Of a stretch of DNA of 64,000 nt, positions 24,440-24,711 are shown one piece after another. The notes below the pieces were generated by a model that was given only the letters and a program-made list of their open reading frames with translations, was not told where the DNA came from and searched no databases. Positions within the stretch are counted from its first letter, which is position 1; each line of letters opens with the position of its first letter. The position numbers were made by a program, and so were the translations under genes. This DNA is from Escherichia coli (GTDB taxonomy: Bacteria; Pseudomonadota; Gammaproteobacteria; Enterobacterales; Enterobacteriaceae): assembly GCF_965641715.1 (NCBI RefSeq), contig NZ_OZ282453.1; one strand, given 5' to 3'.

Positions 24440-24711
24440 AGCGTAAAACGCCTTATCCATCCTACGGTTCTGTGCTCGGGACCTGTAGGCCTGATAAGAC
24501 GCGTCAGCGTCGCATCAGGCACTGAATGCCGGATGCGGCGTAAACGCCTTATCCGGCCTACGGTTCTGTGCTCGGGTCTTGTAGGCCTGATAAGACGCGT
24601 CAGCGTCGCATCAGGCACTGAATGCCGGATGCGGCGTGAACGCCTTATCCGGCCTACGGTTTTGTGCTCGGGTCTTGTAGGCCTGATAAGACGCGCCAGC
24701 GTCGCATCAGG
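24440..24711. repeat. Tandem BIME / REP array (about 2.7 copies of a roughly 100-bp unit)
   Basis: Unit gcgt(a/g)aacgccttatccggcctacggtt(c/t)tgtgctcgggtcttgtaggcctgataagacgcg(t/c)cagcgtcgcatcaggcactgaatgccggatgcg repeats head to tail; the ORF track shows the same peptide three times in two frames here. Confidence 0.75.

Follow-up and report, generated by a model that had tools for sequence, protein, structure and literature searches.

Introduction

In Escherichia coli, repetitive extragenic palindromic (REP) sequences and the bacterial interspersed mosaic elements (BIMEs) form a repeat family with hundreds of occurrences per genome. BIME-2 elements consist of Z2 and Y REPs in tandem copies that are joined by short linkers, and their copy number varies between strains (Ton-Hoang et al. 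2012, PMC3333891; nomenclature of Gilson and Bachellier). BIME-1 elements consist of Z1 and Y REPs, are present as single copies, and have a long L linker that frequently contains an IHF site (PMC3333891). The present study concerns a tandem repeat in a stretch of 64,000 nucleotides of E. coli DNA (contig NZ_OZ282453.1 of RefSeq assembly GCF_965641715.1; the whole stretch is referred to as the window), in which the spacer between wzxC and wcaK of the colanic acid operon occupies positions 24403-24773 (371 bp). Our data indicate that this untranslated spacer contains a BIME-2 array of three 96-bp Y/Z2 units, and that the array is probably best seen as a tolerated, nearly neutral repeat.

REP325, an array of six units of the same type that lies between yjdM and yjdN in E. 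coli K-12, attenuates its downstream gene approximately 8-10-fold in a partly Rho-dependent manner, stabilises the upstream mRNA, and yields a ladder of hairpin-ended RNAs (bioRxiv 10.64898/2026.03.23.713779). The same work found that REP-containing tandem gene pairs are upstream-biased genome-wide, with a strong dependence on context. The Y-l-Z2 unit of REP325 is covered by the naRNA4 model (Qian et al. 2015, PMC4550694). As a class, BIME-2 elements show enriched gyrase cleavage, which falls mainly in the Y REPs (Sutormin et al. 2019, PMC6379681), and TnpA-REP cleaves and recombines BIMEs in vitro (PMC3333891). With regard to the spacer itself, REP insertions and deletions at wcaK-wzxC were already reported by Iguchi et al. 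(2011, PLoS One 6:e23250, PMC3158064).

Structure of the array

The preliminary description of this DNA, made by a model from the letters alone, had placed approximately 2.7 copies of a roughly 100-bp unit at 24440-24711. Tandem Repeats Finder detected one array at 24430-24713 with a period of 96, 2.9 copies, 94% matches, no indels, and a score of 496, and a repeat search found three in-register copies at 24446, 24542 and 24638, the identities to the first copy being 96% and 77%. The tandem array is real, and the earlier figures were slightly off but essentially right. A chance origin of the array is excluded because the spacer RNA has a fold of -187.9 kcal/mol compared to -132.6 +/- 5.3 kcal/mol for shuffled sequences (z = -10.5).

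On the operon strand, a Y-type REP comes first in each unit, followed across a 19-nt linker by a Z2-type REP in inverted orientation and then by a linker of 5 nt, and the length of the three units is 96-97 nt. The two linkers presumably correspond to the S and s motifs of the BIME-2 nomenclature. The consensus of the Y REPs in the array is TGCCGGATGCGGCGTrAACGCCTTATCCGGCCTAC with CTAC at the 3′ end, the consensus of the inverted Z2 REPs is GTAGGCCTGATAAGACGCGyCAGCGTCGCATCAGGCA with GTAG at the start, and that of the 19-nt linker is GGTTCTGTGCTCGGGTCTT. Both the consensus scan (Y at 24431, 24527 and 24623; Z2 at 24484, 24580 and 24676) and the inverted-repeat pairs demonstrated that the orientation alternates throughout the array, with Y on the + strand and Z2 on the - strand. 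A GTAG start or a CTAC end is present in all six REPs, and the predicted hairpins contain internal mismatches. In terms of stability, five of the six hairpins are at -21 to -22 kcal/mol, the first Y REP being the exception at only -8.6 kcal/mol, and the Y-linker-Z2 segment is predicted to fold as a single long hairpin of -54.4 kcal/mol. REPIN-like doublets mobilised by RAYT/TnpA-REP are defined by an inverted REP pair capable of one long hairpin and by a cognate tnpA-REP gene in the genome; such a gene is not expected in this window.

The three palindromic motifs from which the preliminary description had built its unit can be read in the sequence, and they are confirmed as REPs of the Y and Z2 types. 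The consensus strings used in the scan are presumed forms of Y, Z2 and Z1, and the Y/Z2 assignment is corroborated by the Rfam alignment and by the REP325 literature. Identity was also supported by the matches of the palindromes to Y/Z2 REPs elsewhere in the genome and by the variation of the spacer length in steps of 96 bp. A CRISPR-like reading was rejected because the 'spacers' between the palindromes are identical in every unit.

The array is a BIME-2 in every respect that can be read from a sequence. It has the alternating Y and Z2 REPs, the GTAG/CTAC ends, the stem mismatches, the short linkers, the tandem arrangement and the conserved units of the BIME-2 family; nothing essential differs, and its own traits are the degenerate first Y REP and the very short 5-nt linker on the non-GTAG side. 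The IHF-binding REP pairs (BIME-1/RIB/RIP) also carry their REP palindromes in inverted orientation, but they are single copies that possess Z1 and a long L linker with an IHF site, none of which is found here: the consensus scan detected no Z1 REP in the array, and with linkers of 19 and 5 nt there is no long L linker.

The Rfam naRNA4 model (RF02564; gathering score 59.5) matched the - strand at 24488-24558 with 81.9 bits and at 24584-24654 with 79.7 bits. The alignment is almost perfect in both hairpins, and relative to the l linker of REP325 that of the array is short by 6 nt. On the operon sense strand the model reached only 54.7-55.4 bits, which is below the gathering threshold. Judged by sequence, the naRNA4 match reflects REP homology only. 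The array is similar to REP325, the best experimental model for a combined attenuator and stabiliser, in its Y and Z2 hairpins and in its location between two co-oriented genes of one operon. It differs from REP325 in having three units instead of six, in its head-side linker, which is the one shortened by 6 nt, in an orientation that makes the naRNA4 sense strand antisense to the colanic acid operon, and in the RfaH/ops antitermination of the colanic acid operon. No named REP annotation is listed at the wzxC-wcaK locus in the NC_000913.3 record, and the RepRanger files contain no wcaK/wzxC entry.

The genes on both sides of the array are full-length NCBIfam equivalogs, and its assignment to the colanic acid operon between wzxC and wcaK, as originally proposed, is secure. 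The upstream protein matches NF007773 over residues 1-492 of 492 (834 bits), and the gene is named wzxC in all matching RefSeq genomes; the downstream protein matches TIGR04006 over residues 1-426 of 426 (935 bits). In the wider gene order, wcaJ lies upstream and wcaL lies downstream of this pair. Between the wzxC stop codon and the first REP lie 27 nt, and between the last REP and the wcaK start codon 60 nt, with the wcaK Shine-Dalgarno sequence outside the REP hairpins. The coordinates of the individual features are listed in Table 1.

Table 1. Features of the wzxC-wcaK spacer, its flanking genes and the operon leader (positions in the window)
Feature	Position	Strand	Basis or remark
REP 1, degenerate Y-type palindrome with CTAC end (TGCCGGGTGCAGCGTAAAACGCCTTATCCATCCTAC)	24430..24465	+	sequence, consensus scan; weak hairpin, -8.6 kcal/mol
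19-nt linker between CTAC and GTAG ends (GGTTCTGTGCTCGGGACCT)	24466..24484	+	also at 24562-24580 and 24658-24676
REP 2, inverted Z2-type (GTAGGCCTGATAAGACGCGTCAGCGTCGCATCAGGCA)	24485..24521	+	fits Rfam naRNA4 Z2 hairpin; -21.9 kcal/mol
5-nt linker CTGAA between non-GTAG ends	24522..24526	+	also at 24618-24622
REP 3, canonical Y-type palindrome	24527..24561	+	Rfam naRNA4 Y hairpin; -21.3 kcal/mol
REP 4, inverted Z2-type palindrome	24581..24617	+	naRNA4 alignment, consensus scan, fold
REP 5, canonical Y-type palindrome	24623..24657	+	naRNA4 alignment, consensus scan, fold
REP 6, inverted Z2-type, array end	24677..24713	+	partial naRNA4 match 24681-24713; -21.9 kcal/mol
Left arm of inverted repeat bracketing the array	24404..24421	+	from 5′ half of small AT-rich hairpin in array-less strains
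Left copy of 8-nt direct repeat CGRCAAYG (CGACAACG)	24420..24427	+	flank comparison
Right arm of bracketing inverted repeat	24719..24736	+	begins with right 8-nt direct repeat CGGCAACG, 24719-24726
wcaK leader, unstructured, A/C-rich, G-poor	24714..24773	+	C 16, G 9 of 60; Shine-Dalgarno GAGG 24765-24768
wzxC, colanic acid repeat-unit flippase, upstream gene	22924..24402	+	stop codon 24400-24402
wcaK, colanic acid pyruvyl transferase, downstream gene	24774..26054	+	NCBIfam TIGR04006
Spurious 120-aa open reading frame	24404..24766	+	in-frame 96-nt period, repeated peptide
Spurious 108-aa open reading frame, opposite strand	24388..24714	-	repeated peptide, no Pfam family
JUMPstart/ops element of colanic acid operon	5533..5571	+	Rfam RF01707, 57.3 bits; ops GGCGGTAGCGTG at 5560-5571

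Copy number in E. coli and the empty site

A first search of E. coli genomes with the array included in the query was swamped by REP copies elsewhere (median of at least 37 places per genome), and the matched spans were already seen to step by 96 bp. The query was replaced by one that contained the flanks only, 400 bp of wzxC and 400 bp of wcaK, and of 5,426 E. coli genomes, 4,653 (megablast) or 4,711 (blastn) then gave a single site each. Spacer frequencies were determined from 118 spacer lengths in two evenly spread samples of complete E. coli genomes; they are not phylogenetically corrected, and RefSeq is biased towards few clones. The spacer measured 71 bp with 0 units in 11%, 179 bp with 1 unit in 14%, 275 bp with 2 units (the K-12 form) in 29%, 371 bp with 3 units (the form in this window) in 9%, approximately 468 bp with 4 units in 10%, approximately 564 bp with 5 units in 9%, and approximately 661 bp with 6 units in 7%. 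Other spacers, which are decayed or unrelated alleles, made up approximately 10%.

Sequences retrieved for each length class showed whole-unit differences and identical flanks. Internal deletions within the array account for the 145-bp and 263-bp alleles. A BIME is absent from the 161-bp spacer of the E. coli B lineage (e.g. BLR(DE3)) and of some other strains. This spacer has instead a G/C-rich palindromic repeat of an unrelated kind, CCCTCACCCTAACCCTCTCCCCAGGGGGCGAGGGGAC, and its wcaK leader, TTTTGAGGTCATA, resembles those of other genera. The array has grown and shrunk between lineages by whole 96-bp units (0 to 6), and it also decays by small internal deletions. In terms of clones, all sampled O157:H7 genomes had the 179-bp spacer, all sampled K-12 derivatives had the 275-bp spacer, and in the ST131-like flank class all sampled genomes but one (275 bp) had the 468-bp spacer. 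Because the alleles are stable within clones, this is a polymorphism at the level of lineages and not rapid phase variation. The preliminary description had considered the copy number likely to be strain-variable, and the comparison of intergenic lengths bears this out across the sampled E. coli genomes. Iguchi et al. (2011, PMC3158064) described O157 strains that differ by indels of two or four REP sequences in the same spacer, where sequence similarity changes; their six strains were compared without a BIME-2 classification, and the 0-6 unit series, the frequencies and the cross-genus comparison are added here.

The arms that bracket the array (24404-24421 and 24719-24736) are 83% complementary, and in array-less strains they fold as an 8-bp AT-rich stem, GTTGTTTT/AAAACAAC, the empty-site fold being GUUGUUUU...AAAACAAC. 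The array occupies the loop of this small pre-existing hairpin. The sequence CGRCAAYG is present on both sides of filled alleles (24420-24427 and 24719-24726) and as a single copy in three empty-site strains, and it could be either a footprint similar to a target-site duplication or microhomology for the precise loss of the array.

Several strains have other arrangements at this locus. E. coli PSJ-42 has a wcaJ-wzxC-wcaK-wcaL-wcaM segment that is 79% identical to the window and Enterobacter-like, with a 17-bp spacer, TTATTTAAGAGGCCATT, that is identical to those of Enterobacter sichuanensis and Lelliottia nimipressuralis; on sequence grounds this suggests an inter-genus import into E. coli. 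In Escherichia sp. MOD1-EC7003 the cluster is eroded: what remains of wza (a fragment) and of wzc (its 3′ end) is linked to wcaK, itself split into two open reading frames (ORFs), via a composite BIME array that ends in the last Z2 REP and the right flank of E. coli. The arrangement has the appearance of a deletion that removed wcaA…wzxC, with REP arrays where the ends meet, although it may be a short-read assembly artefact. Finally, 715 of the 5,426 complete E. coli genomes could not be matched to the wzxC-end/wcaK-start flanks, even by blastn, which suggests that approximately 13% of complete E. coli genomes are without this part of the colanic acid cluster.

The wzxC-wcaK junction in other Enterobacteriaceae

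Species-representative genomes were scanned with WcaK, which gave 80 loci and 77 measurable spacers. The wzxC-wcaK spacer was at most 45 bp long in 49 of the 77, typically 15-30 bp with just the Shine-Dalgarno sequence (…AAGAGGTCATT), and because of this prevalence a tight junction is taken as the ancestral state. REP-like palindromes were present in 9 of the 77, namely in E. coli, E. whittamii, several Citrobacter and Salmonella enterica subsp. arizonae; the E. whittamii spacer contains a single Z2 with flanks of the E. coli type. Another 12-13 of the 77 spacers carried a CCCTCTCCC…GGGAGAGGG…GGGGTGAGGG repeat of the same class as that in E. coli B, which we take to be 'boxC-like'. The junction has been colonised repeatedly by different small repeats, and this fits a permissive site.

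Open reading frames over the array

The preliminary description had called the two long ORFs over the array spurious, and this was upheld. The translations of the 120-aa and 108-aa ORFs both carry a repeated 32-residue peptide because 96 is divisible by three. Across the alleles, the stop-free run follows the number of units, with 88 aa for 2 units, 120 aa for 3 and 184 aa for 5, and it is broken where a unit is 97 nt in length (AZ153, 23CRST024); in strains with 0 units both ORFs are nonexistent. A Pfam search returned no family for either the 120-aa or the 108-aa ORF, and no coding sequence is annotated in the wzxC-wcaK spacer in the PGAP/RefSeq records examined.

Transcriptional context and published data for K-12

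The JUMPstart/ops element is the only recognisable upstream regulatory leader of the co-oriented cluster that contains the array. The ops pattern has two matches in the window compared to 0.06 expected, and a second JUMPstart is located at 30003-30041, ahead of the O-antigen cluster. The ops element recruits RfaH, which suppresses Rho, and any Rho-dependent attenuation at the array would be opposed by RfaH recruited in this way. A search of the interval 24000-25200 gave no site resembling a promoter or an intrinsic terminator. The end of the array was considered as an intrinsic terminator and rejected, the last REP being followed by AAAAACGG.

Published microarrays of MG1655, in which Rcs was induced by colicin M, allow the two sides of the 2-unit K-12 array to be compared. 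The 60-min log2 ratios were 4.45 for wzxC and 4.45 for wcaK (PMC3599342, Table 1), and in the same series the values were 5.92 for wcaI, 5.10 for cpsB, 5.15 for cpsG, 4.82 for wcaJ, 3.63 for wcaL and 2.71 for wcaM (PMC3599342). Over the operon the induction declines steadily from wza (7.12) to wcaM (2.71; PMC3599342, Table 1). Drops are seen from wzc to wcaA (6.72 to 5.70), where the spacer bears a REP, and from wcaK to wcaL to wcaM, and no drop is seen at the BIME-bearing cpsB-cpsG or wzxC-wcaK spacers (PMC3599342). The preliminary description had also proposed that the array affects mRNA stability or polarity; this is plausible by analogy with REP325 but is not visible in these K-12 data.

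It had further suggested that the array binds IHF or gyrase. The suggestion of IHF is inapplicable because the array is a BIME-2 without an L linker and without an IHF consensus. Gyrase binding is a trait of the BIME-2 class, true in vivo of a subset of its members, but the K-12 allele shows hardly any gyrase cleavage. In the Topo-seq table DS3 (PMC6379681), the 185-bp BIME-2 at W3110 2,121,726-2,121,911 corresponds to the K-12 wzxC-wcaK array, as mapped by the same offset of approximately 3.26 kb as for the dgcE-alkA REP. This 2-unit allele had 0, 0, 0 and 1 gyrase cleavage sites in the four treatments, compared to up to 35 for strong BIME-2 sites (PMC6379681). For the 2-unit K-12 allele at least, this locus does not qualify as a strong gyrase site.

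Possible roles of the array

In the interpretation that we prefer, units may be gained and lost via unequal recombination or slippage between units, possibly aided by TnpA-REP. The array would be transcribed within the long operon mRNA, and five of its six REPs would be able to form hairpins of approximately -21 kcal/mol. By analogy with REP325 and with the classic REP work, these hairpins could block 3′-to-5′ decay of the wza...wzxC message, and the hairpins together with the 371-nt ribosome-free gap could permit some Rho-dependent loss of read-through into wcaK-wcaL-wcaM. Such REP325-like attenuation and stabilisation would be the most likely activity of the array, and its net effect on expression in this RfaH-controlled operon is probably small and at most modest. 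Several points weigh against this interpretation. The absence of a step across the 2-unit K-12 array argues against strong attenuation, with the qualification that microarray fold changes measure such effects only bluntly; the Y REP that opens the array is degenerate; the flanking CGRCAAYG repeat is unexpected for the IS200/IS605-like mechanisms of REP mobilisation; and 'nearly neutral' is assumed by default.

If the array were instead a regulatory rheostat, the number of units would set how strongly wcaK-wcaL-wcaM are expressed compared with the genes upstream, by way of Rho-dependent attenuation and protection of the upstream message, and lineages would have been selected for different settings. 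The effects of REP325 on its neighbours and the upstream bias of REP-containing pairs genome-wide favour this idea, as do the spread of copy number from 0 to 6 with each class at 7-29%, the C-rich, G-poor leader that follows the array, and the independent filling of the spacer by other small structured repeats in approximately one third of the other Enterobacteriaceae species. The equal induction of wzxC and wcaK in 2-unit K-12 stands against it, and so do the ops/JUMPstart element, with RfaH suppressing Rho, and the context dependence that the REP325 authors stress (bioRxiv 10.64898/2026.03.23.713779); moreover, 0-unit, decayed and unrelated-repeat alleles all persist, as neutrality predicts. 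We regard the rheostat as unlikely. A related and quite unlikely reading is that the junction is a selected 'structured spacer', in which BIME units tune the late genes wcaK-wcaL-wcaM against the flippase and lineages differ in colanic acid. It rests on the filling of an ancestral junction of 15-30 bp independently by unrelated small palindromic repeats: Escherichia has Y/Z2 BIMEs there, Citrobacter and Salmonella arizonae have other REP pairs, and E. coli B shares the CCCTCTCCC/GGGGTGAGGG repeat with a dozen other genera. If it were true, lineages would differ heritably in colanic acid output or modification (pyruvylation, repeat-unit finishing).

A role at the DNA level, in which the array is a gyrase or nucleoid-organising site, either as a strong gyrase site or as a bridging cruciform of the HU/naRNA4 type, is suggested by the gyrase enrichment of the BIME-2 class and by the match of the units to naRNA4, for which HU-mediated condensation was proposed by Qian et al. 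(PMC4550694). It is very unlikely in view of the near absence of cleavage sites in the K-12 allele, the finding that no nucleoid compaction or REP-REP contacts are attributable to REP325/naRNA4 (bioRxiv 10.64898/2026.03.23.713779), and the approximately 11% of sampled strains without the array. It is extremely unlikely that the repeats code for a genuine repeat protein or constitute a small RNA gene of their own, homologous to naRNA4: ORFs of 120 and 108 aa do span the array and the naRNA4 model was matched above its threshold, but the dependence of ORF length on copy number, the frame breaks at 97-nt units and the other properties of the ORFs given above argue against a protein, and the above-threshold matches are antisense to the operon, with no promoter-like site nearby. 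The probability that the array is an IHF-binding BIME-1 (RIB/RIP) element is close to nil; it has behind it the general statement that some BIMEs bind IHF, and against it not only the lack of Z1 and the linkers of 19 and 5 nt but also the tandem arrangement, BIME-1 elements being single copies (PMC3333891), and the IHF consensus WATCAANNNNTTR, which has 0 matches in the spacer and 3 mismatches at the best local site. The three matches to this consensus within the window are all outside the spacer and are no more than expected by chance.

Significance

The element is already known in the sense that it is a member of the BIME-2 family, that the polymorphism of the spacer has been published (PMC3158064), and that strain-variable copy number of BIME-2 elements is textbook knowledge (PMC3333891). 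E. coli has several hundred REP/BIME loci, and the array is an ordinary one among them. The contribution here is descriptive: it gives the series of 0-6 units together with approximate frequencies, documents decayed and alternative alleles and the structure of the empty site, and sets the junction in a cross-genus context. For annotation, neither the 120-aa and 108-aa ORFs nor the naRNA4 match should be taken as genes. For typing and assembly, a length polymorphism with 96-bp steps, from 71 to 661 bp, adjoins the O-antigen region. Because a single operon occurs naturally with 0-6 identical units, its alleles lend themselves to a test of REP number against operon polarity, a question reopened by the REP325 work.

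Other repeats and RNA elements in the window

Additional REPs are present in the window. A single Z2 is located at 3077-3113, a single Y lies in the wzc-wcaA spacer at 9527-9561, and a Y+Z2 pair is found between cpsB and cpsG at 19931-20012. A Y + Z1 pair with a 32-nt linker at 56615-56711, close to the his leader, is probably BIME-1-like. Three further Rfam models were matched above threshold: algC RNA at 20049-20098, directly after the cpsB-cpsG BIME and upstream of cpsG; the histidine operon leader at 56241-56364 on the - strand; and STnc240 at 58661-58735.

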